Assembly: GCA_947259305.1 (NCBI GenBank)
Contig: CAMYML010000018.1
Coordinates: 1 to 58,971 of the forward strand
Direction: 5' to 3'
Source of the DNA: an uncultured Gammaproteobacteria bacterium
Lineage (GTDB): Bacteria; Pseudomonadota; Gammaproteobacteria; GCA-001735895
Length of the DNA stretch: 58,971 nt
Numbering within the stretch: position 1 is the stretch's first letter; the number at the start of each line of letters is the position of its first letter. Both the position numbers and the translations under genes were made by a program. Positions 1 to 18,549 of the stretch are shown here, one piece after another. The notes under the pieces were generated by a model. That model saw nothing but the letters and a program-made list of their open reading frames with translations. It was not told the origin of the DNA and did no database searches.

Positions 1-543
1 CTCGCCGGCGCTGCAATCGATATCGTCGCCCGGCGCCGTGGTATTGTCTTCGCAGAGGAACAGGTCGGGGATCACGAGCGCCATACCCTCGGTTCGGATT
101 CCATTAGGCGTCACCAGGATTTTATCCGCCCCACCGTTATCAATATTGGAGACCGCGTATCCGTAACCAGAATCCCAGGGATCGACAAGTTGGCCGGTAG
201 CGTCGTAATCGCCATTGATACCGAGGGTTCTGCCCGGGAGAAAACCAAAGAAGGCCTCGCAATCGTTGGTTCCCACTCGATCCTCAGCGCCATCGATGGT
301 ATTGACAGGTGCCACAGCATCCGTGCTGGTATCCGGGCAAGGCAGGCGGCCGTTGACCTGGGCAAAGGCGATCAGATGCTCGATGATTTTATCCATTTCC
401 CGGTCGACCTGGCGGTATTTCTTCAAATCCTGCTGGATCGGGAACATGGCTACCGTGTAGCCAAGCAGGATGGTCACGATCAATAGTACGATCGCAATTT
501 CGACCAGCGTAAAACCTTTACTATTGTGATTCGAACTATTCAT
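1..543 (-). CDS. Prepilin-type (type IV pilin-like) protein; the 3' end runs off the window
   Basis: Absent from the ORF track because it has no stop inside the window. Minus-strand ATG at 543-541; I checked triplet by triplet that the frame stays open to base 1 (181 codons). The N-terminus MNSSNHNSKGFTLVEIAIVLLIVTILLG is a class III signal (G|FTLVE, Glu+5) followed by a hydrophobic helix. It shares the NGRLPCPD motif with the upstream 757-aa protein. Confidence 0.75.
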   Translation of the reverse strand, partial: MNSSNHNSKGFTLVEIAIVLLIVTILLGYTVAMFPIQQDLKKYRQVDREMDKIIEHLIAFAQVNGRLPCPDTSTDAVAPVNTIDGAEDRVGTNDCEAFFGFLPGRTLGINGDYDATGQLVDPWDSGYGYAVSNIDNGGADKILVTPNGIRTEGMALVIPDLFLCEDNTTAPGDDIDCSAGE

Positions 544-572
544 ATTTGTTCGCTCATCGTTGAAGCCTCGCG

Positions 573-2846
573 TCAGTTTACAACGAACACCGTATCCGCA
601 CGGTTGCCGGGAACCGTTTCTTCGCGCTTGTCGAAAATCCGTGGCAGCAAACTATCCGAGGCGGGCGTCGGGTCGTTGTTCGGCACCGGGTGGGGCCACA
701 GCCCGGAATAGTTTTCCGGTTCGAAAACGTCTTGCAAATCGTTAGAAAAGTCGCTGTCCGGCAGATCTTCGTTGGCATCCAGATAGTCGCCGTCGATATT
801 GAGATCGTCGCCATCAAGCAAATCGTGTTCGCCCGCGAGGATCAACAGGGCATTGAAATTGTTATTGGTGCCTGACTGGTTGCTGACCACCAGGCAATCG
901 TCCGCTACCGGGTTCGCAAAATCCAGATCTGCCGTACATGCGCCATCTCCGCCGGGAGCAAAATCGGGCATGTAAGACATCATGATCGTCTCGTCCCAGC
1001 GGTTATCGCTAACCCAGCGCGGCAGTGGCGGATACCAGTCGACGGTGATTACGAGAGGATCCTGGTAACTAGAGGTAACATCCAGTTGCAGGTCTACCGT
1101 ACACAGTATAGTACCGGCGTCTTCGTTGCCGAGAGAATAGAGGTTCAGGCCGCCGCCGACAAAATTATCCTGGTCGCACAGCGAGACCTTGATATCAAAG
1201 AAGTTGCGCGTATCGGGCTCGGCCGGATCGACTATGGGCAGCATCGTTACCTCAGTTTCGCCAAAGGTAAACTGGCGACGCGAATGATTCGCGGCCGTGG
1301 GCAGCGTCGGCGCGTTCACGCCGGGCGCGGGCGCATAGTCAAGCTCTATCACGAAATCGGGATCAATATACTGGAATTCGATCATTCTCACCGCGATATC
1401 CGCGTGATCGTTCCAGTCCGAGAAGGATTCAAACCCATAGGGTGAAACATCATCCTTTGCACAGTCCTCGGGGTTCTGGCCTCCATTGTCGCAAAGCTCC
1501 CAACCGTCCGCGGCTTCGAAACAAGTCGGGCAGCCGTCCCAGAAATAGCGTCTTGCCGTATTGCTGGGATAGGTCGTAGCGGTAATCGCGGATGTGCCGC
1601 TATCCTGAACGATCAGGGTGCCGATATTATCGGTAGACACGTCAGCCACACCGTCGAAAGAAGTCCTGGAAAACGAAACGCGTGCATTCGAAATGTTAAC
1701 GGTCTGGTCGCCATCAGGATAGTCTGAGACGACATCGCTGGCCGCGGCGATATAGGTCGGATCGAAGGGGTCCAGGTTATCGACCATCGAATTGTAGGAC
1801 GTATCGAGATCGTAGGATATCTCCAGGTCGCTAACGATGACTGAATGCGGCGAATTGTCATCGACGAAATAGTCGATAAACGGTACTCGACCCGAGGTTT
1901 CGCCTAGCCGCGCATTGTAAATATCGAGGTCAGTGGTATCACCATAGGCGCTGAGCCAGGGGTAACGATAAAGCGGGTTTGGCGGCGGCCCCCACAAGGT
2001 TTCCTGGTAGGCGACGATCGCGTCCCGATAGGTCTCGAGCACTGCTTTTTCAGCCATGGCGATGACTTCATCGGCAGTGACAATGATCATCTGATCGTTA
2101 ACCACGAACTCGCTTGCATCAGGATCGTATATCGGGCCCAGGATAAAGCTGTCATCGTTGGAATCAGGCACGCCATTGGTGAATACGCTGTTGTCAAACT
2201 CGTTATTGGCGCCCGCGCCCTGCACGAACAGGGTATCCAGATAATTTCTTGGCAACAATCGTTGCGGTGCCGTAGCCCGGACCTGGACATACTCGTAGAC
2301 GCCGTCGTTGTTTGCATCGCGTCTTGTTACCGGCCCCGGCGCAATAATAATAGCCGCAATGCCTGCACCGTCACCGTCATAGAGAATACCGCCTGACTGG
2401 TCTAACACGGTGATGGTGCCGGTCGTGTCTGAATTGATAACGCCGCCACCGGCAACATTGTCGAAAGCATCCGATACCGCGTACCAAAGCCTTTCTCCCG
2501 ATGCATCCAGCGTTTCCTGAATATTAAGGCGCGCATCGGCCCAGGGGAAGCGACCGACCTGATTACAGGTTCCCGCACCATCGACGGTACCATCGTTGTC
2601 AACGTCAGGACAGGGCAGCCGCCCTGGTCCGCCACCGGTTGAAACTGGATAATTGTAGGCAAACATCAGCAGTGCCTGCTTGGCCTGTTGCAGAACGCGC
2701 TGATTATGTTCGTAACGCTGTTTTTCGACATCCTGCCTGGCCTGCTGGGTGAATCCGCTGAGAACCACGCCGCCGAGCCCCATCAACCCGAGCACAACTA
2801 GTATCAGTGCATAACCGGCCTGTTGTCTGACGCGGGGGGTCTGCAT
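573..2846 (-). CDS. Large pilus-associated protein with a PilX_N/MshP-like N-terminal anchor and Asp-rich Ca-binding-like loops (putative tip adhesin or cargo)
   Basis: 757-aa ORF. The N-terminal anchor RQQAGYALILVVLGLMGLGG resembles PilX/MshP-type minor pilins and has no Glu+5. DxDxDG-like loops are present: GRLPCPDVDNDGTVDG, RRDANNDGVYEY and DGDDLNIDGDYLDANED. It ends 29 nt upstream of the pilin-like gene. Confidence 0.55.
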   Translation of the reverse strand: MQTPRVRQQAGYALILVVLGLMGLGGVVLSGFTQQARQDVEKQRYEHNQRVLQQAKQALLMFAYNYPVSTGGGPGRLPCPDVDNDGTVDGAGTCNQVGRFPWADARLNIQETLDASGERLWYAVSDAFDNVAGGGVINSDTTGTITVLDQSGGILYDGDGAGIAAIIIAPGPVTRRDANNDGVYEYVQVRATAPQRLLPRNYLDTLFVQGAGANNEFDNSVFTNGVPDSNDDSFILGPIYDPDASEFVVNDQMIIVTADEVIAMAEKAVLETYRDAIVAYQETLWGPPPNPLYRYPWLSAYGDTTDLDIYNARLGETSGRVPFIDYFVDDNSPHSVIVSDLEISYDLDTSYNSMVDNLDPFDPTYIAAASDVVSDYPDGDQTVNISNARVSFSRTSFDGVADVSTDNIGTLIVQDSGTSAITATTYPSNTARRYFWDGCPTCFEAADGWELCDNGGQNPEDCAKDDVSPYGFESFSDWNDHADIAVRMIEFQYIDPDFVIELDYAPAPGVNAPTLPTAANHSRRQFTFGETEVTMLPIVDPAEPDTRNFFDIKVSLCDQDNFVGGGLNLYSLGNEDAGTILCTVDLQLDVTSSYQDPLVITVDWYPPLPRWVSDNRWDETIMMSYMPDFAPGGDGACTADLDFANPVADDCLVVSNQSGTNNNFNALLILAGEHDLLDGDDLNIDGDYLDANEDLPDSDFSNDLQDVFEPENYSGLWPHPVPNNDPTPASDSLLPRIFDKREETVPGNRADTVFVVN

Positions 2847-2848
2847 GA

Positions 2849-3313
2849 CTAGTTTTCGATGTTGACCAGGTAGGTAACTTCGAGCGTCTGGCCGCTGGTG
2901 GCGTAATACTGCTTGCCATCCGGCGCGGTGATTCTGACCCTGACGTCATCCCCCGCCAGCACCTTGAGCCGGCTGCTGTCTTCGAGCTGCTCGCCGTCTT
3001 CGTACATGATCGAATTTATCCATACCGAGTGCGGTCCATCGCGCGACAGGGTAATGCCAGAAATCACGTATTGCTGCATCACCTCTTCCTGCGCCAGCGG
3101 CTGACTCGGCAATTCGATGACCGCTTCAACCGGCTCCGCCAGCTCGACCAGTTTGGGCTTATCGCCCTTGTAGCGGTTGGAGTTTATGATCTGTCGCTCC
3201 TGCGGCGTAGTGAACAGCGTCGACAGGCCTGCCGCCATCAGCGGCTGGTGTTGCCCGATAAACAGGGTAACCATGAGCAGGGCCAGCCAGGTTTTTTGTC
3301 GATTACTTGGCAT
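2849..3313 (-). CDS. PilP/MshK-like periplasmic assembly component
   Basis: 154 aa with an N-terminal signal-like helix (WLALLMVTLFIGQHQPLMAA). It is small and sits after the PilO-like gene. It overlaps the upstream gene by 11 nt and lies 2 nt from the 757-aa gene. Confidence 0.4.
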   Translation of the reverse strand: MPSNRQKTWLALLMVTLFIGQHQPLMAAGLSTLFTTPQERQIINSNRYKGDKPKLVELAEPVEAVIELPSQPLAQEEVMQQYVISGITLSRDGPHSVWINSIMYEDGEQLEDSSRLKVLAGDDVRVRITAPDGKQYYATSGQTLEVTYLVNIEN

Positions 3314-3899
3314 CGATTGTCACCCAGCGTAGCGTGCATGTTGTAGTGAGGTTGGCCTTCTGGGTATCGAGCGAGCTGCTGACTGGAGAGGACCGGGTAA
3401 TCAAGCAGCTGTCAACCGTGAACAGGTTCCTGATCGACAGGCGCAAACCTTCCAGCAGGGCGAACAGGTCTTCCTCGTGCAGCATTCCCATCGACAGGTC
3501 CATCGGCGAACTGTTGACCTCGACCCCACGCTTGACCTTGAAATTCGGACGCTCGAATTTCTCCTGCGGATTCAGATCATAGGTCAGCCTCGGCAAGCGT
3601 AACACCTGGTTGGTGGATTCAAGGCTTTCAATCCAGCTCAGGCGCCGCTCCTTGCCGACCAGCCCGGAAGATTTGTAGTCGCTGTAGAGGGTGCGATACT
3701 GGTCCAGCAGATCGATATCGTTGACCATGTTGCTGTAAATCTTGTGCGTCGAACGCAGCGTGGCCACCGCTTTCTCGTATTCTTCGTTTTGCATCTTTTC
3801 CCACTGGAAGCTGGCAAGTATCAGCAGCACGAAGATCAGAACCGAACCCAACAACATGCTGATGGGCCGTTTCAGGTAAAACCAGTCGATCCTATTCAC
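3303..3899 (-). CDS. PilO/MshJ/GspM-like bitopic inner-membrane component
   Basis: 198 aa with a single N-terminal TM helix (ISMLLGSVLIFVLLILASF), then a coiled-coil-like stretch and a C-terminal domain. It overlaps the PilMN-like gene by 8 nt. Confidence 0.4.
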   Translation of the reverse strand: MNRIDWFYLKRPISMLLGSVLIFVLLILASFQWEKMQNEEYEKAVATLRSTHKIYSNMVNDIDLLDQYRTLYSDYKSSGLVGKERRLSWIESLESTNQVLRLPRLTYDLNPQEKFERPNFKVKRGVEVNSSPMDLSMGMLHEEDLFALLEGLRLSIRNLFTVDSCLITRSSPVSSSLDTQKANLTTTCTLRWVTIDAK

Positions 3900-5493
3900 C
3901 CCTGGGTACCTCCCTGACGACCCGAAACGCCAGTTCTGCCTTCTCTTTAATGTTCCTTTTTATATTACTGGCGTCGCCGCTTAGCCGGTTATCCGACTCG
4001 ATATCCAGCGGGCGCCTGGTGATTTCCACCGAGAAGTACTTGCCCGACTCGTTCATCGTCTTTTCCAGATCGTCCACCGCGCTTAGCGCATAGCGATAAT
4101 TGCCATCGAAATTCAGGAACTCGCCTTCCACCTGGGCGATTTCGAAATAACCCTTTTTCGGCTTGGGCGCGTTCCTGTCCCTGTTTTTGTCGGTCGCCCG
4201 CCGGCGCTTTTTCGGCTTGCCCCACTGCACGTCGGAAGCCGACCCGACATCTGAATAGTTGGCGACAAACCAGTCGACCTTCTTGACGCGGATATCGGAA
4301 AAAATACTGACGTCGCTGCTGATCATCGCCAGCATCTCTTCCGGATCACGCAGGTACTGCTTCTGCAGCGTCTCTACCGTTTGCACGATATGCTGCATAT
4401 TCGTGGTCGAGGTCGTCGAGTCGATATGGTTTTCACTGAGTTGGTTGTACTTGGCCTTGTACTTTTGCTCGATCAGCCTGGTCTCTTCGATAGTGCTATT
4501 GTAAAGCAGGCCCTTGACGCCGCTGGTCATTGCGATGCCAATCCCCAGGGCGACCAGCGCGATGCTGGCGGCGCGCAACCCCAGGCCGGCGCGATGGTGC
4601 ATGAAGTAACGCCGCTCTTTGGGCTGGGCGTAATGATTGGCGGAAATTTTCTTGCTCGCGAGGTAACAAAAAAGCCCGGAGCTGAAATCCTGCTCATCGC
4701 TGACATCGATTTTCTCGCGCGCCAGCAGTTCATTGATTTCGTGTATCGTAAAATCGAAGTAACTTTCCTTTTCACTACGCATCAACAGCTTGTCGAAATG
4801 GCGCTTGTTGGTCAGGATATGCACCGCCACGGTTTCCGAGCGCTCGACGATACGCTGGCTGATCAGGTAACGCTGGGTCGACTCGATGTCACGCAACACG
4901 TCCGAGGCATAATCGCCCTGGTAGAAACTCGCGATCGGGACCAGCCGGCTGAGGATCAACTTGCCGTCGATGAACACCGACTGTCGCAGGTTGCTCGGCA
5001 CCTGCTGACTTACCAGGATGACCGCCCGTTGTTCCGACTTGAGTTCCTTGACATGGCTTTCGGAAACCAGCGGCAGGCTCAGAATTCCGGACAGGGGTGT
5101 GCGCGTATCCTCGACTATCTTGAGCCAGGGTTCGAGCAGGTACTGGTTGGTGAGGCCCATGATCAGCACCTTCTCTTCCTTGCGCGTTCCCTTTTCCTTC
5201 GATTGCGAAATTGAAAACCTGTACTCCGAGGTACGGAAATACTTGGCGTAGTTGCGCTTGAGAATCGCCTGTCGATCCGAACCCCGCAGCAGCGGGATGC
5301 GAATCTGGCGAAATTCTTCCTCGATCAGGTCGACCAGCAAGCGCACCGGTTCGTTGCGAAACGAACGCAGGTAGGCTGCGAATAAATCCAGCCCCTGGTC
5401 ATCGGGTTCGAAGTAAACGCTGCTCAACAGCTTACGGCCGGACCATTCCTGTGCGACCATTCTGTAACCGGTGAAATATAGGATTCTTCTCAT
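3892..5493 (-). CDS. PilM-PilN / MshI / GspL-like bitopic assembly protein
   Basis: 533 aa: a ~300-aa cytoplasmic part, one TM helix (LRAASIALVALGIGIAMTSGV), and a ~200-aa periplasmic part. It lies directly downstream of the GspF-like gene. The function call rests on architecture and context only. Confidence 0.5.
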   Translation of the reverse strand: MRRILYFTGYRMVAQEWSGRKLLSSVYFEPDDQGLDLFAAYLRSFRNEPVRLLVDLIEEEFRQIRIPLLRGSDRQAILKRNYAKYFRTSEYRFSISQSKEKGTRKEEKVLIMGLTNQYLLEPWLKIVEDTRTPLSGILSLPLVSESHVKELKSEQRAVILVSQQVPSNLRQSVFIDGKLILSRLVPIASFYQGDYASDVLRDIESTQRYLISQRIVERSETVAVHILTNKRHFDKLLMRSEKESYFDFTIHEINELLAREKIDVSDEQDFSSGLFCYLASKKISANHYAQPKERRYFMHHRAGLGLRAASIALVALGIGIAMTSGVKGLLYNSTIEETRLIEQKYKAKYNQLSENHIDSTTSTTNMQHIVQTVETLQKQYLRDPEEMLAMISSDVSIFSDIRVKKVDWFVANYSDVGSASDVQWGKPKKRRRATDKNRDRNAPKPKKGYFEIAQVEGEFLNFDGNYRYALSAVDDLEKTMNESGKYFSVEITRRPLDIESDNRLSGDASNIKRNIKEKAELAFRVVREVPRGE

Positions 5494-5503
5494 GACTCTG
5501 CCG

Positions 5504-6709
5504 CTAAAAATCGATCGTGGCGATGGTGTCGTAAATCGGGCCCAGCACGGACAGCGCCAGCCACAAAACGATAATACCGATGGTCGCCATTAGCGATGTC
5601 TGTAAAACAGGCTCCATTTTCTCGATACTGTCGTTGATGTCGCGATCGAAAAAATAGCTCACGTTATCCAGCGATTTGTCCATTTGACCACTGGCTTCGC
5701 CGACGCGCAGCATGCGTACGACCAGCGGTGGGAAAATCCCGATATTCTTGAACGCTTCGCTGATACTGCTGCCTTCTGAAATTTGCTGCCAGGCGCGATC
5801 GATGCCGTCTTCGAGCACGGCGTTGCTGAGCACGCCCTTGCTCAGGTTGATCGCGTCGAGCACGGTGATGCCGGAAGCAAACATCAGCGAAAAGTATCGC
5901 GTGAAACGCGAAATCTTGATCTTTTCATTGACATGACCAATGATCGGCAGTTTCAGCATTATGCCGTCAAGCCTGAAACGCGCCTTATTGCTGCTGTTAT
6001 AGTAAAACCTGAGGCCAAAGAATATAGCGAACGGTGCTGCAATGACCACGTACCAGTAGTTGACGAGAAAATTCGAGGTCGCCATCAAGGCCCGCGTTTC
6101 GAACGGTATTTTACCGCCGAGCCCGACGATTGCATCCATGATGTCCGGCACCACGAAAACCATCAAGAACATGACCACCGACAATACCAGGCTGCCGATG
6201 ACCGCGGGGTAGGTCATGATCTTGCGCGCCTTGGACATCAGTTCGTCCTGCCATTTCAGGGTTTCGGTAATATCGACCAGCACGTGGCTCATGCGGCCGC
6301 TGCGCTCACCGACCCGGATCAGGCTGGTGAAGACATCGTCAAAAATTTTGGGATAAAGCGCGAGCGCCTGCGAGAATGAGTTGCCGCCCTCGATCGCTTC
6401 GATCAGACCGGTAATGATATCGCGAAAGGTCGGGTTTTCCTCGCCGTCCCTGAGATCGGCCAGGCCCTCGAGAATCGGCACGCCGGCGCGCGTCAGCTGT
6501 TCGAGGTAAAACGAGAAATTGATCAGGTCGCGCCGACCGATCTTGTTGCGGCCGAACAGGTCGGAGCCGGGATCCTTCTGCTTGAAGGTGACCAGGTCCA
6601 TGTCCATTTTCTCGAGCCGTAGCTCGAGGTCGTTGATATTACCGGCATCGAGGCTACCCGAGATAAACTTGCCGCTGGCATCGATGGCCTTGTACTGAAA
6701 CAGTGGCAT
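5504..6709 (-). CDS. GspF/PilC/MshG-family inner-membrane platform protein
   Basis: 401 aa. It has the duplicated T2SS-F-type organisation and hydrophobic segments, and it visibly resembles the mshG product in this window (LxxAGxPIxxxL blocks; C-terminal LGPIYD versus VPMWD). Confidence 0.9.
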   Translation of the reverse strand: MPLFQYKAIDASGKFISGSLDAGNINDLELRLEKMDMDLVTFKQKDPGSDLFGRNKIGRRDLINFSFYLEQLTRAGVPILEGLADLRDGEENPTFRDIITGLIEAIEGGNSFSQALALYPKIFDDVFTSLIRVGERSGRMSHVLVDITETLKWQDELMSKARKIMTYPAVIGSLVLSVVMFLMVFVVPDIMDAIVGLGGKIPFETRALMATSNFLVNYWYVVIAAPFAIFFGLRFYYNSSNKARFRLDGIMLKLPIIGHVNEKIKISRFTRYFSLMFASGITVLDAINLSKGVLSNAVLEDGIDRAWQQISEGSSISEAFKNIGIFPPLVVRMLRVGEASGQMDKSLDNVSYFFDRDINDSIEKMEPVLQTSLMATIGIIVLWLALSVLGPIYDTIATIDF

Positions 6710-6711
6710 GG

Positions 6712-8418: not shown

Positions 8419-10805
8419 AGCTTCCCTAATATCTCCAATCGCTGGTCCACCACTTCCCTGCTGAAGGTCGCGAGTCCATTACCAAAATTATCCAGCGCGC
8501 GCCGATAATACGAAACTGCAACGCGGGGCTGAGAGATATGCTCCAGACTGACCGCCAGATTGTAGGCATAGTTAGGATCGCCTGGATTATTTTCGAGCGC
8601 CCTGAAGTAGTGACCCTGCGCTTCCTGCCAGCGATTTTGCGCACCATAGGCATTGGCTAACGCAAAATTCAGATACGGCGAATCGGGTTCGTCGCGAATC
8701 ATCAGTTTCAACTGCGTTTCGGTATCCTGCGGCGAATAGTTGGCAACCGAGATCAAGGATGCCATCGCCAGCGAATCCTTGGGGTTCGCCAGCAGCACGG
8801 TCTGGTAATCGCGGATGGCGGCTCGGCTGTTATTGTTCTGAACATGGATCGCCGCACGCGCGAGCAAAGCATTTCGACTCTGGGGATCGACCTCGAGCAC
8901 CTTATTGTAAAGACTCATGGCGAGCTCATCATTGCCCGCCTGATAAGCGGCATAAGCTTCACGTAACCAGATACTCTTCTGCTCGACGCGCTGCGTCGAT
9001 GTAATCTCGAGCGTCGACGCAGTCGTCCCGCTATAGGACCCAGCCGCTGCCGGCTGCGCGAGACTTGCAATCTCGGTTGCTGCTTCAGTTTCTATTTTGC
9101 TTTGCGATGGCGTGTCGATGGTAGCGGCCGCTGCTGTCTCGGTCTGGGCGGGTATCGCAGTTGTGTCGCTCGCTGCCGTCGGCGCTGCAGATTCGGCGAC
9201 GGCGCTTTCACCCGTTGCGACAGGCACCGATTCCCCGGCGATGACCCCGCTGTCCGGGACCGAGACCGGCTCACCGCTGGCGTTATCGGCGTTTTGAATG
9301 ATGTCGATGGTACGCTCATCGACTTCGGTCTGGGCAAACAGACTGCCAGCCTGCGGTGCAGTTTCGGGGCGTATGATACCGGGCATCGGGTCGCGCTTGA
9401 GTGGGCGTAAACTGGCATCGATGTTGCTCGATTGATCGTTGTACTCGATCAGACCGTAGACTAAAAGCGCCAGCAGAATCGCAACCGCGATGCCGGTATA
9501 AAACTTGTAATGCTGCAGTCGCTGCGCTGACGATTTGCTGTGAAACACCTTCTTAGCATATTCCGGCGTCATGACGACGTCGGAATCGGATTTCATCCCG
9601 GCAAACAGTTTCGACGCATCGTCGCTCGGCATGCGCATCAGGGTGCGATCGTAATTATCCGGCGCATAGGTGCGTGTCGACGTGGTTTCGGTGCGCGCCG
9701 TGGCGCCGGTCTGGGTGTCGAGCGCAACGCCGGTGGTGGCGCTAGTGCTGGTTTGCGTCTGGCCCGCGGTCGAGGTTGCCTCGGAGGGCATCTGGTGACG
9801 TGTCGTGTCGACCAGCGCAAGGCCATCGTCGCCGCCGCTACCGTCCTGCAATGCCTGTATCTGGTCTTGCCTCAACTGGGGATCGGTTACCGCAGTCGGG
9901 TTGGTCAAATTGGTCTGATCACGCTCAACCAGCAACAGGGACATGTCCTCGGCGTCAGCGTCGGTATCGTCCTCCACTTCGACCATCTGGCTAATATCAT
10001 CGTCAGCCCCTGCCTGCTGCTGGGCCGCTGCGTATTCAAGGTCCGCGACCGAGGCCGGCGGGACGCTGATATCGGTTTCGTCCTCGGCGCTGACCTGGTC
10101 CCTGGAATCGGTTTCATCGTCGACAACCGCCTGCTGCTCGGGTTCCGCTAATTCGTTCAACGGAAAAGGCTGGCTGATATCGGTATCGTCTGCCCGCGCT
10201 GCGAGCTGGCTAAGGTCGGTTTCATCAGCCGCAGTCGGTGCCGCCGCTATCTTGCTGACGTCGGTTTCATCCTCGTGCTGGAGGAGCTGGCTCAGGTCGG
10301 TTTCGTCACCTGCAACCGCTGCCGCCGCCATCTCGCTGACATCGGTTTCATCCTCGCGCTGGGCCAGCTGGCTCAGGTCGGTTTCATCTTCGGGGGCGCG
10401 CTGCTCGCGGCTGACCAGCTGCGGCTCACCCATGAATTCCTCGACATCCTCGTCAGCAAAAATGATCGTTTCATCTTCACCCGTCTGCATTTGCGCACTT
10501 AACGAGGGCACCTCGGTCGTGGTCGTATCGGGGACTTCCAGCCGGGTTTCGGTGCCGTCTTCAGGTTCGACCTGGGTTCGTTCGAGCCGCGTATTGAACT
10601 CGGAATCATCGATTTCGGTTTCATCCCGCAGCGCCCGTTGGGATTGCCGCAGGCTGCTATCCACACCGCCTTCAAGCTCAGAGACATCCTCCGCGGCGGC
10701 AACGATCTCGGTTTCGTCCGACGAACCGGCCTGCGGAGCCTCCTGCTTGTTCTTTTCCGCCTTTTGCTCGGCGGCTTTTTTCAGCGCGTCTAGCAGTAAA
10801 CTCAT
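8415..10805 (-). CDS. Bitopic TPR protein (MshN-like) with a GspB-like N-terminus and a long acidic repeat region
   Basis: 796 aa. The N-terminus MSLLLDALKKAAEQ is GspB/ExeB-like. Residues ~29-286 carry 13 DET(D/E)-type motifs. One TM helix (FYTGIAVAILLALLVYGLIEY) is followed by an Ala/Thr-rich linker and C-terminal TPR repeats (AYAAYQAGN..., ALANAYGAQNRWQEAQGHYFRALE). Confidence 0.75.
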   Translation of the reverse strand: MSLLLDALKKAAEQKAEKNKQEAPQAGSSDETEIVAAAEDVSELEGGVDSSLRQSQRALRDETEIDDSEFNTRLERTQVEPEDGTETRLEVPDTTTTEVPSLSAQMQTGEDETIIFADEDVEEFMGEPQLVSREQRAPEDETDLSQLAQREDETDVSEMAAAAVAGDETDLSQLLQHEDETDVSKIAAAPTAADETDLSQLAARADDTDISQPFPLNELAEPEQQAVVDDETDSRDQVSAEDETDISVPPASVADLEYAAAQQQAGADDDISQMVEVEDDTDADAEDMSLLLVERDQTNLTNPTAVTDPQLRQDQIQALQDGSGGDDGLALVDTTRHQMPSEATSTAGQTQTSTSATTGVALDTQTGATARTETTSTRTYAPDNYDRTLMRMPSDDASKLFAGMKSDSDVVMTPEYAKKVFHSKSSAQRLQHYKFYTGIAVAILLALLVYGLIEYNDQSSNIDASLRPLKRDPMPGIIRPETAPQAGSLFAQTEVDERTIDIIQNADNASGEPVSVPDSGVIAGESVPVATGESAVAESAAPTAASDTTAIPAQTETAAAATIDTPSQSKIETEAATEIASLAQPAAAGSYSGTTASTLEITSTQRVEQKSIWLREAYAAYQAGNDELAMSLYNKVLEVDPQSRNALLARAAIHVQNNNSRAAIRDYQTVLLANPKDSLAMASLISVANYSPQDTETQLKLMIRDEPDSPYLNFALANAYGAQNRWQEAQGHYFRALENNPGDPNYAYNLAVSLEHISQPRVAVSYYRRALDNFGNGLATFSREVVDQRLEILGKL
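9948..10721 (-). repeat. Coding acidic repeat region (DETD[LVI]S-type motifs); the near-perfect ~27-aa/81-bp super-repeat core is at 10173-10391
   Basis: At the DNA level, ggtcggtttcatc / gacRtcggtttcatcctcg units recur about every 40 and 80 bp (for example near 10203, 10251, 10283, 10331 and 10366). In the protein this reads EDETDLSQL..EDETDVS..AAA repeated. Confidence 0.7.
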
Positions 10806-10822
10806 TCTTTATCTTCTCTCTA

Positions 10823-12403
10823 TTACTCGGAGAATATCTGAGGTTTCAGGAACTGCTTGAAGTCCTGCATACTGGTATCGATACTGGCGTTGTCGATAAC
10901 CCGCGGCCGCAGGAAAATCACGAGTTCGGTCTTGTCGGCATCTCGCGACTTGTTACCAAAAAGTAACCCAATCCCCTTGGCATCATGCAGCCCCGGTAAA
11001 CCCCGACTTTCGGTTTCGATAGAATCCTGCATTAGTCCGCCGATCACCGCTGTATTGCCGCTGGCAACGCGCAGCACCGACTCCATTTCACGCACCTGAA
11101 TTTCGGGTATGCTATTGGGAATAAGCAAATTGGGATTCGGATCATCCTTGAATCCCACTATACGGGTGATGGTGGGACGTATGTTCAGCGTAACCTCGTC
11201 ATCGGCGGATATAAACGGCGTCACGTTCATGACAAAGCCGACGGCGACGGTTTTCGCAGTGGTATTGACAATATCGGTCGTGACCGCGCCAGCGCCCGAG
11301 CCCGTGGTATTACTGGTCGATTCAACCTCAAAATAGATTATGTTATCGGCAACCTTCAACACCGAGGTCTGGTTGTTGAGCGCCATTATCTTCGGGCTCG
11401 ACATGACCGACACGTCACCGAAGGTATCCAGCGCCTGGATCGCGGAAGATATATTCCTTTCGCTGTTGGTATTCAGATAGGTTGCCGAGGTGATCGGAGG
11501 CGTTCCTATACTTGGCGCCGTTCCCGCATCCCCCGCCGACGCACCGATTACTTGTTGCGACAGGCTCCAGCCGTCTCCACCAGCGAGGCGCGCCCAGTCG
11601 ACTCCGGCCTGGAAATCATCGTTCAGCCTGACTTCGACCACGGTCGCCTCGATCAGCACCTGGCGACGGGCGCTGCCCATTACGGTATCGATAAACAGCT
11701 GAATATTTTTGTGTGCCGCTGAGCTCGTGCGTACCGATATCGTGCCTGATTCGCGATTCGATATCACGACGCCCTCGGTCGTGTCTGGACTAGCCATTAA
11801 CGCTATATTCTCTTCCAGGGTTTGCCAGAACTGATTATTCGACTCGTTAGAAATCGAAGCCGATGAATCGCCGGTGGCGCCGCCTTCACCTCCGCCCTCG
11901 CCCAGGGCCGTCTCAATACCGATTGCCGTGCTGGTGTTTCTCGACATATTGAGATAGTCGACCCGGTATATACGGGTAAAAGGCCGGTCCACTTCTACCA
12001 CCAAATTCGGGCCATCCAGGTAATAACGCAATGCCACCTGGCGCGAAACGCGCTTCAGGATTTGCGGCAGGGTTTGATCGATGGCGTTAATGCTGACCCG
12101 ACCGTCGATCGCCGGGTCGATGTCCAGGTTGAGGCGCGCGTCACGCGCCAGTGCGAACAACAGTTCGCTGGCGGGCAAGTCCGTTGCCACCACGGTAAAG
12201 GTTTGCATGGGCTCGGCAGGTTCGGGCACGGCGATAATCGGCACCTGGTTCACCACCGGGGGAATATCGATCTCGGCCTGCGTAACCGGCGGTGGCGCCG
12301 TGTCGAGATGCCCTTCGGTAACCGCCATCCGTTCATTTTTCGACCCCGGGACCTGGCAGGCCGTCAGGCTGAGTAAAACGAGTAACAGTGCAATTCTTTT
12401 CAT
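10823..12403 (-). CDS. Secretin lipoprotein (MshL/PilQ/GspD family)
   Basis: 526 aa. A lipobox signal is present (LLSLTAC). Secretin-domain motifs include VLIEATVVEVRLNDDFQAGVDW, VMSSPKIMALNNQTSVLKV and GLPGL...LFG...ELVIFLRPRVI. Confidence 0.9.
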   Translation of the reverse strand: MKRIALLLVLLSLTACQVPGSKNERMAVTEGHLDTAPPPVTQAEIDIPPVVNQVPIIAVPEPAEPMQTFTVVATDLPASELLFALARDARLNLDIDPAIDGRVSINAIDQTLPQILKRVSRQVALRYYLDGPNLVVEVDRPFTRIYRVDYLNMSRNTSTAIGIETALGEGGGEGGATGDSSASISNESNNQFWQTLEENIALMASPDTTEGVVISNRESGTISVRTSSAAHKNIQLFIDTVMGSARRQVLIEATVVEVRLNDDFQAGVDWARLAGGDGWSLSQQVIGASAGDAGTAPSIGTPPITSATYLNTNSERNISSAIQALDTFGDVSVMSSPKIMALNNQTSVLKVADNIIYFEVESTSNTTGSGAGAVTTDIVNTTAKTVAVGFVMNVTPFISADDEVTLNIRPTITRIVGFKDDPNPNLLIPNSIPEIQVREMESVLRVASGNTAVIGGLMQDSIETESRGLPGLHDAKGIGLLFGNKSRDADKTELVIFLRPRVIDNASIDTSMQDFKQFLKPQIFSE

Positions 12404-12431
12404 TGTGTTATTCCAGTTAATATCCAGACTG

Positions 12432-12953
12432 CTAAAGCAAAGCTTTCTGCATGCGATAAACCGAATGCAGATACGGCGAATTGACCTTCACCGACGCGGG
12501 CAGTCGCTCGAGTTGGGCCCTGCCCTGAGACAGGGTGTCAAATTCACTATAGAAAACCCGATATATACTTCTTTCCTCGGTATTTACTTCATATAAATAC
12601 GTCTTCGATAAATCCAGCGGCCATTCGTTACGTAGATAATAGACCAATTCGCGCGCCGCGGACTTACTGCGCATTAAAACCTGGATCGACACATTGTTCC
12701 GGTTCGCGTTACTGAGCCAGTCACGGCTCTCTCTCAATTTTACATTTAGCCACTGATTGTAATCCGCGGTCAAGCCTAGATCATTGCTATTAATGGTCTC
12801 GAGCGCGTCAGTTGAAGCGGTTTGATCGAGCGCGTCAGTTGAAGCGGCCTGATCGAGCGCGTCAGTTGAAGCGGCCTGATCGAGCGCACTCTGAAGGACT
12901 TCGTCTTCAGCCACCTGTGCTAGCGCAGACTCTACTGGTGCCTGCTCTGTCAC
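12432..12953 (-). CDS. SPOR-like peptidoglycan-binding module with an N-terminal 9-aa tandem repeat; probably the detached C-terminus of the ExeA-like protein
   Basis: 173-aa ORF with a GTG start, no signal peptide and no TM helix. It carries ALDQAASTD x3. The C-terminal part (VSIQVLMRSKSAARELVYYL...YRVFYSEFDTLSQGRAQLERLP) has the look of a SPOR/ExeA periplasmic domain. It overlaps the upstream gene by 47 nt. Confidence 0.5.
   Translation of the reverse strand: MTEQAPVESALAQVAEDEVLQSALDQAASTDALDQAASTDALDQTASTDALETINSNDLGLTADYNQWLNVKLRESRDWLSNANRNNVSIQVLMRSKSAARELVYYLRNEWPLDLSKTYLYEVNTEERSIYRVFYSEFDTLSQGRAQLERLPASVKVNSPYLHSVYRMQKALL
12801..12887. repeat. Perfect or near-perfect 27-bp tandem repeat, 3.2 copies, in-frame
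   Basis: The unit gagcgcgtcagttgaagcggYYtgatc occurs at 12801-12827, 12828-12854 and 12855-12881, with a partial copy at 12882-12887. Copies 2 and 3 are identical; copy 1 differs at 2 positions. Confidence 0.9.
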
Positions 12954-14145
12954 CTGATTCGTGGCTACATGGGCACCCTGGCGACTGCGTCGGTGGAATC
13001 GCCGTTTGTGTTTGCTGGCTCACGGTTTCAATTGGCTGGTCTAGCGTTTCGGTTTGCTGGGAAACCGGCTCCGGAGTTTGCGTGACCGCGCCCAGATTCG
13101 CCTGTATTTCAACGCTATTCTGCACCTTTGCGGCCTCGGGTTTTGCAGTTTCCTGGACCTGTGGCCCAATATCTGTGACAGGTTTGTCATTTATTACGAC
13201 ATTTTGCCGATTATCGGCCATATCAGCGCTCTGCAGCGGCATCCACTGCGACCGCGTCTGGTACAAAGCTATCGCCAACGCAGCTAGCGCAAGCAGGCCA
13301 AGCCACCATAACTTGCTCGATTTACCCGAGGATTTCTGATTGAAGGCGCTGTCATTGACCGCCGCGGTGACGTGTTTGGGACTCAGATTATGAGTTCCCT
13401 CGGCAAACGCGGATAGCAGAATTTTGTCGGCGATGATGTTGATGCGCCGCAGCAATCCGTCGGAATGCTGCTCGACCTTTTTCGCCACCGACTGGTTGAT
13501 CAATTCCGGCCCGGTATAGCCGACTTCGCGCATGCGGAAATTAAGGTAGTTGTGGATCTCATCCTGGGTTAACGGATCGAGATTGAAATTATGGGTAATG
13601 CGTTCGCGTAATTGCCGAATCGACTGTTGCGCCAGGTTTTCATCCAGTTCCGGCTGCCCGAACAAAATGATTTGCAGCAGTTTGTTCTCATCGGTCTCGA
13701 GATTGGATAGCAGGCGTATTTCCTCCAGGGTTTCGAGCGGCATGCCCTGCGCTTCCTCGATGAATAAAACGACCTGCTTGTTTTCCATATGCCGCTGCAG
13801 CAGATAATCCTGCAACAGGTGCATGACTTCGTGTTTGGAAGCCTCTTTGCCCACCGGCAACGATAGCTCGTGCGCAATGACAAACAGGATATCTTCGGGC
13901 GACACGCTCGGATTCGCGATATACACGATTTCAACCGTATTCGGCAATTTGAGCTGCAGCATGCGGCAGAGCATGGTTTTACCGCTGCCGACTTCACCAA
14001 CCACCTTGATGATGCCTTCGCCGCGATGGATTGCGTAGGCCAGCGCCGCAAGTATATCGCCGCGCTTGCCGCCCTCATAAAACAGGCTGGTGTCGGGCGT
14101 TATTTTGAAAGGCGGGCGCTCGAGGCCGAAATAGTCTTCGTACAT
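12907..14145 (-). CDS. ExeA/GspA/MshM-family AAA ATPase with a TM segment and a Q/T/E/P-rich tail
   Basis: 412 aa. Walker A is GEVGSGKTMLCRML and Walker B-like is VLFIEEAQGM. It closely parallels MshM in this window. It then has a TM helix (LWWLGLLALAALAIALY) and a low-complexity tail. The start lies 3 nt after the regulator's stop. Confidence 0.85.
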   Translation of the reverse strand: MYEDYFGLERPPFKITPDTSLFYEGGKRGDILAALAYAIHRGEGIIKVVGEVGSGKTMLCRMLQLKLPNTVEIVYIANPSVSPEDILFVIAHELSLPVGKEASKHEVMHLLQDYLLQRHMENKQVVLFIEEAQGMPLETLEEIRLLSNLETDENKLLQIILFGQPELDENLAQQSIRQLRERITHNFNLDPLTQDEIHNYLNFRMREVGYTGPELINQSVAKKVEQHSDGLLRRINIIADKILLSAFAEGTHNLSPKHVTAAVNDSAFNQKSSGKSSKLWWLGLLALAALAIALYQTRSQWMPLQSADMADNRQNVVINDKPVTDIGPQVQETAKPEAAKVQNSVEIQANLGAVTQTPEPVSQQTETLDQPIETVSQQTQTAIPPTQSPGCPCSHESGDRAGTSRVCASTGG

Positions 14146-14148
14146 GAC

Positions 14149-15543
14149 TTAGTCCCTGTCCTCGAGCCGGTCCATGCGGCCATACAAGGTCGTGCGGTTG
14201 ACGCCGAGCATTTCAGCCGCCTTGCTGATGTTGCCATCGTGCTCGCGCAGCGCCAGATCGATAGCCTTCTTTTCGACCATTTTTAACAAGCGGTCCAGTT
14301 CGAAGTCGGCATCCTGCAATGCCTCACTGAGCCACTCTTCACTGCGGGTCGCGTCGTTATGTCGTTGTAGTCCTGACATTTCTCTCTTCAGCACTTCCGG
14401 CTTGATGGTCTGCCCGGGATACTTCGCTGAAAGTCTAATTATTATGTTACGTAATTCTCGCACATTTCCAGGAAAAGTATAAGAATTCCAGAGCTTTAGC
14501 GCATCGTCGTCAAGTTTGAATGTGGCCAGTTGCTCGGCTACCTGCTGCATAAAATAGAGCAATAGTTCCTGGGCATCGCCATTGCGTTCCTTGAGCGACG
14601 GCACACGCACGGTCAGTACGCTCAAACGATGATATAAATCCTCGCGGAAGTGACCGTCCCTGATTGCGGCAAAAATGTCCTTGTTGGTAGCCGCCAGCAC
14701 GCGCGCCGATGAATGCCGTGGCTGGGTTTCGCCGAGCCGGTAGTACTCGCCGTTTTCAAGCACGCGCAGTAGCTTGGCCTGCAGGTCCAGCGGCAAATCG
14801 GCAACCTCGTCGAGCAATAACGTGCCTGCGCCGGCCTCTTCGAAAAATCCTTTCTTGGTTTCGGTGGCCCCGGTAAACGAACCCTTGACGTGGCCAAACA
14901 ATTGCGACTCGAGCAGTTCACCGTTGAAGGCGGCGCAGTTCAGCGTCAGGAAGGGTTCGAGCTTGCGTGAGCTGCAGCGATGCAGGTTGCGCGCAGCGAC
15001 TTCCTTGCCGCTACCGGATTCACCCTCGATCAGCACCGGGTAGGGCGAATCGGCGATCTGGCGGATCTGCATGCGCAGCAACTCGAGTTCCTCGCTGGAG
15101 CCAATGAGGCCCTCGATATCGCCATGCCCGCCGGCGTTACCGCCGCCAGCGATGATCTGCTTCTTCAGCCGCACCTTGATTTCGGCAATATCGCAGGGTT
15201 TGGATATGAAATCGACCGCGCCATCTTCCTTGGCCTGGAATATGTGTTTCTTGTTGTCCTGACCCGACAGCACCAGCACACGGGTGGAGGGATGCATTTG
15301 CGAAATTTTGCGAATAACCGCGAGTCCCTCGTCGGGACGATGCGTATTCGGTGGCAGACCGAGATCGACCAGCGCCAGCGTCGGCGAGTCCACCATTTTA
15401 TCGATCAGCGCGAAACTCGAGGGTCGATCCGAAGCGCGCTCGACGTCGTATTCTTCGCTGAGCACATACTCAAGGCTGTCGGCGATGATAGCGTCATCAT
15501 CGACCAGCAACAGTGTCGGTTTTTTTTCACTGTTCAGTGACAT
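14149..15543 (-). CDS. Sigma54-dependent response regulator (NtrC-family enhancer-binding protein)
   Basis: 464 aa. It has a REC domain (LLVDDD...LALVDLGLPP), an AAA+ domain (GESGSGKEVAARNLH) with the GAFTGA variant GSFTGA, ESQLFGH, and a C-terminal Fis-type HTH (GNISKAAEMLGVNRTTLYGRM). Confidence 0.92.
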   Translation of the reverse strand: MSLNSEKKPTLLLVDDDAIIADSLEYVLSEEYDVERASDRPSSFALIDKMVDSPTLALVDLGLPPNTHRPDEGLAVIRKISQMHPSTRVLVLSGQDNKKHIFQAKEDGAVDFISKPCDIAEIKVRLKKQIIAGGGNAGGHGDIEGLIGSSEELELLRMQIRQIADSPYPVLIEGESGSGKEVAARNLHRCSSRKLEPFLTLNCAAFNGELLESQLFGHVKGSFTGATETKKGFFEEAGAGTLLLDEVADLPLDLQAKLLRVLENGEYYRLGETQPRHSSARVLAATNKDIFAAIRDGHFREDLYHRLSVLTVRVPSLKERNGDAQELLLYFMQQVAEQLATFKLDDDALKLWNSYTFPGNVRELRNIIIRLSAKYPGQTIKPEVLKREMSGLQRHNDATRSEEWLSEALQDADFELDRLLKMVEKKAIDLALREHDGNISKAAEMLGVNRTTLYGRMDRLEDRD

Positions 15544-15571: not shown

Positions 15572-15600
15572 AGTATAGTGTCTAAATTTCAACAACTCAA
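15572..15600 (-). promoter_or_regulatory. Putative sigma70 promoter for the regulator-led operon
   Basis: On the minus strand: TTGAGT (15600-15595), a 17-nt spacer, then TATACT (15577-15572). It lies ~25 nt upstream of the regulator ATG inside an AT-rich gap. This is a pattern match only. Confidence 0.3.
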
Positions 15601-15752: not shown

Positions 15753-16157
15753 TCACGGCGGATCGATCGAAACGGTCGCCTGAATCTGGCGCTGTACGTA
15801 ATCGAGCGTGCCGTAGCTGCCGCTGCTGGCGATTGACCTCAGGCTGAAGGTATGGATCGGAGGGGGGCCGCCTTCGACATGCGTGGTGCGATCGCATTGA
15901 ACCTCGATATTGAATCCGGCAAACGCGGCATCGGTAAAATTGGTCGATGCCGCACAATTGTCGTTGACAATCGACTGGTGTATGCCCCATTCGATGCCGC
16001 TGCGCGCCGCCTGGTTAGCGCGCGCACCCTGCACCCCGTAGAGCAGCGTGGTTTGTTGCACCACGCGAATATTGGCGATGTAAATCACCAGGGCGGCGAC
16101 GACCACCAGCAGGAATATGGCCGCGATCAGCGTGAAACCGGTCTGCCCACGCTTCAT
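15753..16157 (-). CDS. mshP: MSHA minor pilin-like protein MshP
   Basis: 134 aa. N-terminus KRGQTGFTLIAAIFLLVVVAALVIY (PilX_N-like, no Glu+5). It follows the mshO-like gene with a 4-nt overlap. Confidence 0.6.
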   Translation of the reverse strand: MKRGQTGFTLIAAIFLLVVVAALVIYIANIRVVQQTTLLYGVQGARANQAARSGIEWGIHQSIVNDNCAASTNFTDAAFAGFNIEVQCDRTTHVEGGPPPIHTFSLRSIASSGSYGTLDYVQRQIQATVSIDPP

Positions 16158-17020: not shown

Positions 17021-17478
17021 GGATATCGCGTGCGAAAGCCGCTCAGCTGGATATTTCCGATAGCCGGATGATTGACGTCGACGTCGACGCGTAGCGAATC
17101 TGCAACCGGCACGCCACCTAGCGCGGAATTGGTAATGGTAACCGTCACCGTGTATGCCGCGAGCGCGGCCACCGGATTGCCGAACTGATCGGCCGCCGGC
17201 CCGGCCGCGAGGCTGCGGTAATCCTTGACGTCGTCGTAATCCGCGCGCCCCGCCTCGCCTTCGTCGTTGCCGGTTTCACCACCCTGCGGATCATTGAAGG
17301 CACGCAGCATGATTTCTTCGAGGTAGGCTTCGGCGATGGTAGTCGCCTGCTGTTGAATCACCGGGTCGGCGCTGCCGCGCACCATGTTGGCAAAGCTCAG
17401 CAAGGCAGTAGAGGCAATGGCGATCACAACAAGTGTGACGATTATTTCGATCAGCGTGAAGGCGGCCTGGCGGCGCAT
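17017..17478 (-). CDS. mshD: MSHA minor pilin MshD
   Basis: 153 aa. The prepilin motif is AAFTLIEIIVTLVVIAIAS. It is in the GspI/PilV-like size class. The call also rests on its position between the mshC-like and mshO-like genes. Confidence 0.6.
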   Translation of the reverse strand: MRRQAAFTLIEIIVTLVVIAIASTALLSFANMVRGSADPVIQQQATTIAEAYLEEIMLRAFNDPQGGETGNDEGEAGRADYDDVKDYRSLAAGPAADQFGNPVAALAAYTVTVTITNSALGGVPVADSLRVDVDVNHPAIGNIQLSGFRTRYP

Positions 17479-17482
17479 CGAT

Positions 17483-17959: not shown

Positions 17960-18120
17960 GTGATTCAGGTCTTGAAATTAGGTCAATAATCGTATTGATT
18001 TGTGTAATTTTTAGGCTATAAATCATTTACTTATAGGGCAATTTGAGCATATTGCTTTAACTTGATCTATAAATCAGAGATTCAACCAACATTATTACCC
18101 GGGTACTGGGAGTATAGAAC

Positions 18121-18525: not shown

Positions 18526-18549
18526 CCTGAAGCACTCGTTCCCGCAAAA

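Follow-up and report, generated by a model that had tools for sequence, protein, structure and literature searches.

Does a second set of type IV filament genes that directly adjoins a canonical msh locus represent a rearranged copy of that locus or a machine of its own, and what would such a machine build? The question is raised by a contig of 58,971 nt (CAMYML010000018.1 of assembly GCA_947259305.1; this whole stretch is referred to as the window) from an uncultured Gammaproteobacteria bacterium. Twelve co-directional open reading frames (ORFs) on the minus strand are tightly packed at positions 1-15543, hereafter the block, with 11 intervals of 29, 2, -11, -8, 10, 2, -4, 17, 28, -47 and 3 nt (negative values are overlaps). 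Every gene listed in an initial annotation, which had been made from the sequence alone, was found in place on this strand, with the overlaps and short gaps it had described. A stretch of 209 nt at 34% guanine plus cytosine (GC) lies between the block and the last canonical msh gene, and window-wide the block is not distinguishable from the remainder by its GC content. With high confidence, the block is a conserved type IV filament machine in its own right and no duplicate of msh.

Relatives, gene order and descent of the locus

The signature protein of the family is a bitopic alignment protein of 533 aa, encoded at 3892-5493 (minus strand). Over 100 close relatives share 74-95% identity with it; those that are named come from uncultured Gammaproteobacteria and are all annotated as 'hypothetical'. 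An exhaustive search of 50%-identity representatives matched it to 1679 clusters (E ≤ 1e-3), 422 of them at E ≤ 1e-30, and the cluster matches listed are mostly full length at 24-41% identity. When one genome per species was scanned, at least 500 loci encoding a relative of the protein were found. The best 80 of these belong to metagenome-assembled genomes (MAGs) labelled Gammaproteobacteria (among them Thiotrichaceae, Ectothiorhodospiraceae, Chromatiales, Halofilum and Thiohalobacter) or, within the betaproteobacteria, Sulfuricella and Sulfurimicrobium. When cultured carriers were sought by a profile search and a cluster look-up, metagenomic 'hypothetical proteins' were all that came back.

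The initial annotation had proposed a search of other genomes for the same gene order, and this search bears out the block as a recurring unit. In the roughly 80 loci that were fetched (related loci are labelled L001, L002, L016, L024 and so on), the order is kept as the identity of the signature protein falls from 95% to 27%: regulator, ExeA-like protein, secretin, tetratricopeptide repeat (TPR) protein, assembly ATPase, platform, PilMN-like protein, PilO-like protein, (PilP-like protein), giant pilin-like protein and a prepilin of ~287 aa. In relatives the locus continues past what is here the edge of the window, with a convergent kinase gene and then genes for an ATP-binding cassette (ABC)-2 permease, a single-pass protein of 245 aa, a prepilin of 233 aa and an ABC ATPase. 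The block had been described as a machine; the parts of a machine are indeed present, but they make up only part of a system that in relatives extends beyond the left edge. Only one close relative, L024, has an msh gene beside the regulator gene; L016 does not, nor do the more distant loci with upstream sequence. The adjacency is thus lineage-specific and the system is an independent module; to call the block appended to msh is true locally, but describes a local accident.

The adjoining locus (15753-28477) is a genuine MSH locus, in which MshL, MshM, MshE and MshG match the models expected of them. A lineage-specific tandem duplication of this locus, followed by rearrangement and divergence, would sit well with two adjacent, co-directional loci that both hold MshL-, MshM-, MshN-, MshE- and MshG-type parts; we nevertheless assign it a vanishingly small probability. 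BLAST identities between block and canonical proteins reach only 44% for MshM, 38% for MshE, 28% for MshL and 23% for MshG, and the four remaining component pairs have no BLAST match. The MshE of the window is 57% identical to its counterpart in Aeromonas caviae, where the msh cluster follows the classical order I-J-K-L-M-N-E-G, but 38% identical to the block ATPase. The block itself is ordered M-L-N-E-G-I-J-K, against I-J-K-L-M-N-E-G in the canonical locus beside it, and in other lineages the same type of locus occurs with no msh adjoining.

Phylogeny gives the same answer. Neighbour-joining trees (200 bootstraps) were built for the ATPase, the platform and the secretin, as the initial annotation had suggested, with 13-14 members of the new family in each. 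The references were MshE, MshG and MshL of the window and of Aeromonas, GspD, GspE, GspF, HofB and HofC of E. coli, GspE and GspF of Comamonas, and PilB and PilC of Acinetobacter. The new family is monophyletic in 200 of 200 replicates for each of the three proteins, as is canonical MSH, and in 200/200 replicates the block proteins fall together with their Thiotrichaceae, Ectothiorhodospiraceae and Sulfuricella orthologues, in a clade of their own that is distant from the local msh. Sisterhood of the new clade and the MSH clade receives 44-48% bootstrap, from few references and a simple neighbour-joining method. A recent duplication of msh is refuted by the identities and the trees; an ancient common origin with MSH is possible at this level of bootstrap. 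The view of the block as a second, reordered and deeply diverged MSHA/type II secretion system (T2SS)-like machine, with no recent duplication behind it, is one on which domain searches, paralogue identities and trees agree. It can safely be stated that the block belongs to a separate deep clade, is MSH-like in its secretin, ExeA-like and TPR parts and is not a recent msh paralogue.

Components of the machine

The outer-membrane secretin (10823-12403, minus strand; 526 aa) has the Pfam domains Secretin and Secretin_N_2 and is an MshL-type lipoprotein with an LSLTAC lipobox, a feature common to it and to both canonical MshL proteins (window and Aeromonas). It scores 256.4 bits against TIGR02519 (MshL) and so passes the cutoff of 250.2, compared with 157.7 against TIGR02517 (GspD; cutoff 351) and 104 against TIGR02515 (PilQ; cutoff 284). 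Its identity is 26-28% to MshL and 19% to GspD. At L001, where the signature protein is 95% identical to that of the window, the secretin is called as three successive ORFs (L001:2802-4388; 245, 229 and 69 aa), which would reflect either assembly indels or a disrupted secretin.

Next to the secretin gene lies that of a bitopic TPR protein (8415-10805, minus strand; 796 aa), recognised by TPR families and analogous to MshN/GspB. Its N-terminus, MSLLxDALxxA, is invariant across 17 orthologues. The called ORF of canonical MshN begins too early, its true start lying clearly downstream at MSVINNVLKDLE, and this start resembles the N-terminal motif of the block protein. Residues 21-300 are cytoplasmic and 29% Asp plus Glu, a transmembrane (TM) helix follows at 434-457 and the C-terminal TPRs are periplasmic. 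The acidic repeats that had been read from the sequence are therefore there, partly as a tandem repeat of 81 nt (10195-10388; 2.4 copies, in frame) that encodes acidic units of 27 aa in the cytoplasmic part.

The ExeA/GspA/MshM-like P-loop ATPase is encoded in two pieces. The N-terminal part (12907-14145, minus strand) has a Pfam AAA_22 domain and a TM helix at 276-297, is 44% identical over 266 aa to the MshM of the window and loses its frame at the 3' end. The C-terminal part (12432-12953, minus strand), recognised by alignment to L001 and L002, consists of a linker of 9-aa repeats and a conserved domain of ~110 aa. In orthologues the gene is a single ORF of 564-578 aa, which runs from AAA_22 through the TM helix and a low-complexity linker to the conserved C-terminal domain; in the window it is two ORFs, of 412 and 173 aa. 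Alignment of the 564-aa L001 orthologue follows frame 1 as far as residue 387 and resumes in frame 2 at residue 397, which places an indel, a +1 frameshift, within the low-complexity periplasmic linker at about 12932-12985 (minus strand). Both a genuine lesion and an error of assembly could account for this. Just downstream of it is a tandem repeat (12799-12887; 27 nt, 3.3 copies, in frame) with 9-aa units ALDQAASTD. The repeat regions of this linker and of the TPR protein are recent repeats and vary strongly in length among relatives.

Pfam detects SPOR in 10 of 18 ExeA-like orthologues (best E 8e-5), so that the term SPOR-like is supported for the family; the C-terminal part of the window copy has no Pfam match. 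The TM helix and SPOR-like piece that the initial annotation had seen on the ExeA homologue thus hold for the orthologues, but in the window the gene is split. Inactivating lesions in several genes would have spoken against a working locus in the view of that annotation; what was found is one frameshift, in the ExeA-like gene only, which it had not flagged.

The assembly ATPase (6712-8418, minus strand; 568 aa) combines an N-terminal MshEN domain, predicted to bind cyclic diguanylate (c-di-GMP), with a GspE/PilB-type core. It scores 415.7 bits against Pfam T2SSE and 60.8 against the c-di-GMP motif NF053729 (cutoff 38), has a CxxC...CxxC arrangement and finds its closest solved relatives in PilF/PilB and EpsE. 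It stays below the equivalogs for GspE (TIGR02533, 509 against a cutoff of 630) and PilB (TIGR02538, 516.5 against 675.65), and its identities are of one order throughout: 37-38% to MshE, 37-39% to GspE and 35% to PilB/HofB. The inner-membrane platform of the GspF/PilC/MshG family (5504-6709, minus strand; 401 aa) has three TM segments and two T2SSF repeats (155.8 bits in Pfam). It too falls under all NCBIfam equivalog cutoffs, with 292 against 424 for GspF (TIGR02120).

The three proteins that follow are not recognised by sequence. The 533-aa signature protein and its neighbours of 198 and 154 aa have no match in Pfam or NCBIfam (E ≤ 1), singly or as sets of 35/26 diverse members, and profile searches with the three families against the sequences of the PDB found nothing. 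When the families were compared by hhalign with MshI, MshJ and MshK of the window and of Aeromonas, no match appeared apart from a faint signal linking the 154-aa family to MshK (E 0.0026, probability 12%). Structure prediction identifies the first of the three. The AlphaFold2 model of the 533-aa protein (mean predicted local distance difference test, pLDDT, 85.5) has an actin-like domain at 1-290, a TM/coiled helix at ~295-358 and a C-terminal periplasmic alpha/beta domain. In Foldseek it is closest to PilM from P. aeruginosa, T. thermophilus and M. xanthus (lowest E 1.5e-10), and next to the cytoplasmic portions of EpsL/GspL. These matches of the predicted model confirm a PilM-N/GspL-like protein at the level of the fold, so that the PilMN/GspL-like label, for which sequence gave no support, is upheld by the predicted structure.

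The same cannot be said of the labels PilO-like and PilP-like, which drew no sequence support from family, PDB or MshJ/MshK comparisons. The bitopic 198-aa protein (3303-3899, minus strand) occupies the PilO/GspM/MshJ position and has a TM helix at 9-34, a periplasmic body and two invariant Cys. The secreted 154-aa protein (2849-3313, minus strand), defined from N-termini and alignment, occupies the PilP/GspC/MshK position and has a signal peptide, a conserved LFTTPxER motif and a beta-rich C-terminal part. Size, position and topology would make them PilO-like and PilP-like, respectively.

The giant pilin-like protein (573-2846, minus strand; 757 aa) contains 10 Cys and, at 12% Asp, merits the Asp-rich label it had been given. 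It has no Pfam or NCBIfam match. Its hydrophobic N-terminus, QQAG|YALILVV, is of GspK/PilX style without Glu5; minor pilins of the GspK/PilX type lack this residue. In the AlphaFold2 model (pLDDT 77.7; predicted template modelling score, pTM, 0.77) a pilin-type α1 helix of 60 residues (11-70) leads into a large beta-rich body. The earlier description as PilX-anchored thus gains a pilin-type helix from the model, although Pfam does not recognise it. A fold search of the model in the PDB gave no significant match (best E 0.02). The protein is the fastest-evolving component of the locus: among relatives in which the ATPase is 94% and the platform 86% identical, it has a median identity of 44%, and its length varies between 357 and 1139 aa. 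Fast evolution is what would be expected of an exposed tip or adhesin, and the protein fits best as a tip-located adhesin or a priming subunit.

At the window edge (1-543, minus strand) are the first 181 codons of a prepilin with a class III signal (KG|FTLVE) and a Pfam N_methyl match; in relatives the full protein has 287 aa. A motif that follows its helix, NGRLPCPD, is common to it and the 757-aa protein (GRLPCPD). Both the 287-aa and the 233-aa prepilins of relatives match N_methyl, and the prepilins score best, though weakly, against the models of GspG and GspH. An exact look-up of the 757-aa protein found no match on record, and the context of the left flank is taken from relatives. Some of these differ in their pilin genes. 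At L056 (12957-18310) the prepilin-like and giant-pilin-like genes are inverted (minus strand) and followed by a second giant-pilin-like gene (plus strand), and L077 and L046 have two or three giant-pilin-like ORFs; such rearrangement of the tip module could be cassette variation of an exposed protein. An extra prepilin of the 233-aa type lies between the 287-aa prepilin and the kinase at L037 (14719-15435), L071 (14646-15191), L083 (14712-15347) and L064 (7346 onward), so that the pilin complement of the family is not fixed.

The first gene of the operon (14149-15543, minus strand) encodes a response regulator of the NtrC family, a sigma54 activator of 464 aa with Pfam Response_reg, Sigma54_activat and HTH_8 domains. 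It has the architecture of a PilR analogue, namely a receiver, an AAA+ domain with GSFTGA and a Fis-type helix-turn-helix, and it scores under the cutoffs of every named NCBIfam regulator. It is the first gene in the fetched related loci whose upstream flank extends that far. Upstream of it, a scan for consensus sites identified a candidate sigma70-like promoter, TTGAGT-17-TATACT (15572-15600, minus strand), which is a consensus match alone and lies in the 34% GC gap, itself not enriched for such sites. The kinase of relatives is a histidine kinase that has about six TM helices and lacks a periplasmic domain.

Upstream of the 233-aa prepilin, which lies outside the window, a sigma54 -24/-12 element (TGGCAC/T-N5-xTGC) occurs in 16 of 25 loci, where the loci's own background predicts a frequency of 0.006 per 160-nt region; because the 25 loci are akin, a nominal P value would exaggerate their independence. 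The element stands within ~130 nt 5' of the cleavage-site codon, mostly at 75-105 nt, and is kept even across lineages with ~30% protein identity. The PilS-PilR-sigma54-pilA circuit is the established mode of type IVa pilus control. An NtrC-type first gene, a multi-TM kinase and a sigma54 promoter fit this logic, which makes the 233-aa prepilin the probable major subunit of a putative kinase-regulator-pilin circuit.

Proposed product and function of the locus

Taken together, the components amount to a complete assembly apparatus, with an ATPase, a platform, a PilM-fold alignment protein and its two partners, a secretin and helpers for secretin assembly, to which filament subunits and dedicated regulation are added. 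We propose that the locus specifies an adhesive pilus that carries a fast-evolving protein at its tip and is controlled by c-di-GMP and a two-component system, and we regard this reading, with its full mechanism, as the probable one, though with appreciable reserve. The six-TM PilS-like kinase, encoded to the left of the window in relatives, would phosphorylate the regulator (14149-15543), and the phosphorylated regulator would activate the sigma54 promoter of the 233-aa prepilin. The MshEN-type ATPase would drive assembly on the GspF-type platform and respond to c-di-GMP, while the PilM/GspL-fold protein and the two small bitopic/periplasmic proteins may connect the ATPase to the secretin. 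The ExeA-like ATPase would bind peptidoglycan via its periplasmic SPOR-type domain and, together with the GspB/MshN-like TPR protein, aid assembly of the lipoprotein secretin; by analogy, the pair look like a GspA/GspB-type helper for passage of the secretin through peptidoglycan. The 757-aa protein and the 287-aa prepilin would prime the filament and occupy its tip, where a rapidly diversifying adhesive head would be displayed.

A search of the 59-kb window found neither a prepilin peptidase (GspO/PilD homologue) nor a third ATPase of the T2SSE family, in line with the initial remark that both a peptidase and a retraction ATPase are missing from the window. As in MSH, the peptidase, along with a retraction ATPase if there is one, would be supplied from elsewhere in the genome. 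MSH loci, defined by mandatory mshA, mshE, mshG and mshL as well as mshM, as a rule lack a prepilin peptidase (PMC6668835), and supply in trans also fits the MSHA pilus of V. cholerae, which borrows PilT (PMC9815625).

Features that suggest a surface pilus, rather than a pseudopilus, as the product are the sigma54-driven pilin, the PilS-like kinase, the MshEN domain and the lipoprotein secretin of MshL type; in addition, GspC, N-domains of the GspD type and a G-K set of pseudopilins are all lacking. A T2SS-like machine, in which a short pseudopilus of the 233-aa protein would push substrate out via the secretin, the 757-aa protein would be a GspK-like cap or a displayed or secreted cargo and the ABC-2 transporter might feed the periplasm, appears unlikely to us, though it is the one serious rival and has several features on its side. 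The ExeA/GspA- and GspB-like accessories are classic secretin-assembly factors of the T2SS, the PilM-fold protein has the topology of GspL with cyto-EpsL/GspL among its top fold matches, the pilins lean weakly towards GspG/GspH, the 757-aa protein resembles GspK in the missing Glu5, no retraction ATPase is present in the window and the trees leave a T2SS affinity possible. However, the scores of secretin, motor and platform against the GspD, GspE and GspF equivalogs are far under the cutoffs, where the MshL model is passed; there are no Secretin_N (N1-N3) repeats, no GspC was detected and three pilin-like genes stand in place of G-H-I-J-K. A strongly expressed, sigma54-driven major pilin with a PilS-like kinase is typical of pili, and the MshEN domain is best known from MshE, the ATPase of the MSHA pilus. 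The pilin helix in the model of the 757-aa protein argues for a filament subunit and not for free cargo.

Decay of a paralogous locus into a non-functional remnant in this genome would account for the frameshift in the ExeA-like gene and for the secretin called as three ORFs at L001, but it is very improbable. All other genes are full length compared with their orthologues, the catalytic and binding motifs of the core type IV filament parts are intact and relatives share 85-98% identity in the motor proteins, a sign of strong purifying selection. The frameshift, moreover, falls in a linker rich in repeats and of low complexity, the kind of sequence in which slippage and assembly errors often arise, and the split ORFs of L001 are equally compatible with assembly indels. 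We think even less of the proposal that the block is an accessory module of an exopolysaccharide/PEP-CTERM (XrtA) system, for which the best NCBIfam matches of the regulator, kinase, ExeA-like and TPR proteins (PrsR, PrsK, TIGR03015 and PrsT) could be cited. All four are below cutoff (346.7 against 502.6, 57.3 against 300, 229.2 against 324.5 and 48.1 against 312.2, respectively), canonical MshM matches TIGR03015 better (242 bits) and NtrC nearly equals PrsR for the regulator. The loci have a full set of ATPase, platform, secretin and prepilins, and no exosortase or PEP-CTERM gene was present in those examined. The link was rejected, as these best matches are non-specific.

The proposed adhesive pilus has to be set against several observations that count the other way. 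The PilO- and PilP-like roles are without homology support, the body of the 757-aa protein resembles no known adhesin fold and three pilin-like genes are few against the five or more of MSH, T2SS and type IVa pili. Relatives are the only source from which kinase, major pilin and transporter are assigned to this genome. Within the window the sigma54 consensus has 58 matches where 67 are expected, none of them intergenic within the block, and the ExeA-like gene is frameshifted. The carriers identified here are all MAGs, and the trees are neighbour-joining trees with few references.

Whether the locus type is a distinct, unnamed type IV filament family on a par with MSH, T2SS and type IVa pili is, in our judgement, evenly balanced. 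Its hallmarks, if it is distinct, might with the same even confidence be a fixed architecture of ~16 genes, an ExeA-SPOR protein with a GspB/MshN-like TPR partner, a PilS/PilR-like sigma54 circuit, an ABC-2 transporter and a c-di-GMP-binding motor. Its signature, for which Pfam and NCBIfam have no model, would, at equally balanced confidence, be a fused PilM-N, two small envelope proteins and a giant hypervariable pilin. The census of type IV filaments by Denise et al. leaves 884 systems as 'generic' and removed loci with two paralogues of every gene (PMC6668835); to such a scan this window would look like one of the latter. The locus type is a concrete and well-delimited candidate for one of the unclassified 'generic' families. 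A full-text search of the literature, of incomplete coverage and hence a weak negative, found no paper with this architecture.

Type IV filaments power adhesion and motility as well as DNA uptake and secretion. The locus type described here is abundant in uncultured proteobacteria of marine sediments and of the sulfur cycle, and four of its protein families are unrecognised by domain databases, so that a definition of the family would improve the annotation of its 'hypothetical' relatives. It would also add a model for ExeA/GspB-type factors that serve pilus secretins. The link between c-di-GMP, a two-component system and sigma54 offers a wiring that can be tested, and the fast-evolving surface protein may decide what the carriers attach to.

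The neighbouring msh locus and relation to known systems

The canonical locus shows some peculiarities of its own. Its ORF calls overlap strongly (-97 and -170 nt) at 22018-23514 and 26963-28477. The MshI region consists of two or three ORFs (219, 141 and 200 aa), and the MshI of Aeromonas is likewise in two parts. The last msh gene encodes 134 aa (15753-16157) and is followed by the regulator gene of the second system, with no large MshQ-like ORF; in V. cholerae the msh locus ends with a large mshQ. The Aeromonas caviae reference locus comes from PLSDB entry NZ_AP026896.1 (L087), a replicon of 4.94 Mb that is filed as 'plasmid' and is evidently a chromosome. Upstream of msh lie ordinary housekeeping neighbours: a divergent SpoU-family rRNA methylase (28686-29180, plus strand) and an NAD-dependent glycerol-3-phosphate dehydrogenase on the msh strand (29371-30363, minus strand). 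The window has no tRNA genes. Scanned against Rfam, neither the window nor L002 matches any RNA family, c-di-GMP riboswitches included.

Compared with known systems, the block is in several respects closest to MSH of V. cholerae and Aeromonas (mshHIJKLMNEGF-BACDOPQ). Both have a lipoprotein secretin of MshL type, an ExeA-like ATPase of MshM type, a TPR protein that occupies the MshN position and begins with a similar motif, and an MshEN domain in the assembly ATPase, and both are single loci without prepilin peptidase or retraction ATPase (PMC6668835). They differ in gene order and in the equivalents of I, J and K, which share no detectable sequence similarity with those of MSH and show only a fold-level similarity to PilM. 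The clade formed by the ATPase, platform and secretin of the block is as far from MshE and MshG as from GspE/GspF and PilB/PilC. Additions relative to MSH are a TM helix and a SPOR domain in the ExeA-like protein and, in the TPR protein, a long cytoplasmic stretch of acidic character. Unlike MSH, the new family has a two-component system of its own, a sigma54 pilin promoter and an ABC-2 transporter, and it has three large pilin-like proteins instead of about seven small ones.

The likeness to T2SSs that possess GspA/GspB (ExeA/ExeB) lies in the ExeA-type ATPase with a periplasmic peptidoglycan-binding domain and a bitopic partner, in the GspL-like bitopic protein with an actin-like cytoplasmic domain, in the GspE/GspF-type motor and platform and in the large Glu5-less pilin that recalls GspK. 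The peptidoglycan-binding domain of ExeA is of the PG_binding_1 type, and here it is of SPOR type. In other respects the systems are unlike: the block proteins fall short of the GspD, GspE and GspF models, the secretin is a short lipoprotein that lacks the N1-N3 repeats, there is neither a GspC nor a G-H-I-J-K set, and the new family places its pilin under sigma54 and a PilS-like kinase. A tblastn search of the window with GspC, G, H, I, J, K, L and M of E. coli, a weak test with one reference, found none of them.

Type IVa pili of Pseudomonas, Myxococcus and Geobacter share with the new family a multi-TM kinase that has no periplasmic domain, an NtrC-type regulator, a -24/-12 pilin promoter and a PilM-fold protein. 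The type IVa pilus of M. xanthus has an associated ABC transporter, PilGHI (PMC6060248), and the ABC ATPase, ABC-2 permease and small extra protein beside the pilin gene resemble it in architecture, just as the likeness of the kinase to PilS is one of architecture. In contrast to type IVa pili, the block fails the PilB and PilQ models, has PilM and PilN fused and lacks PilT and PilU, and the secretin-assembly factors of the new family are ExeA-like and MshN-like. The locus is therefore rated as an MSH-like yet phylogenetically and compositionally distinct candidate family of type IV filaments, so far unnamed.

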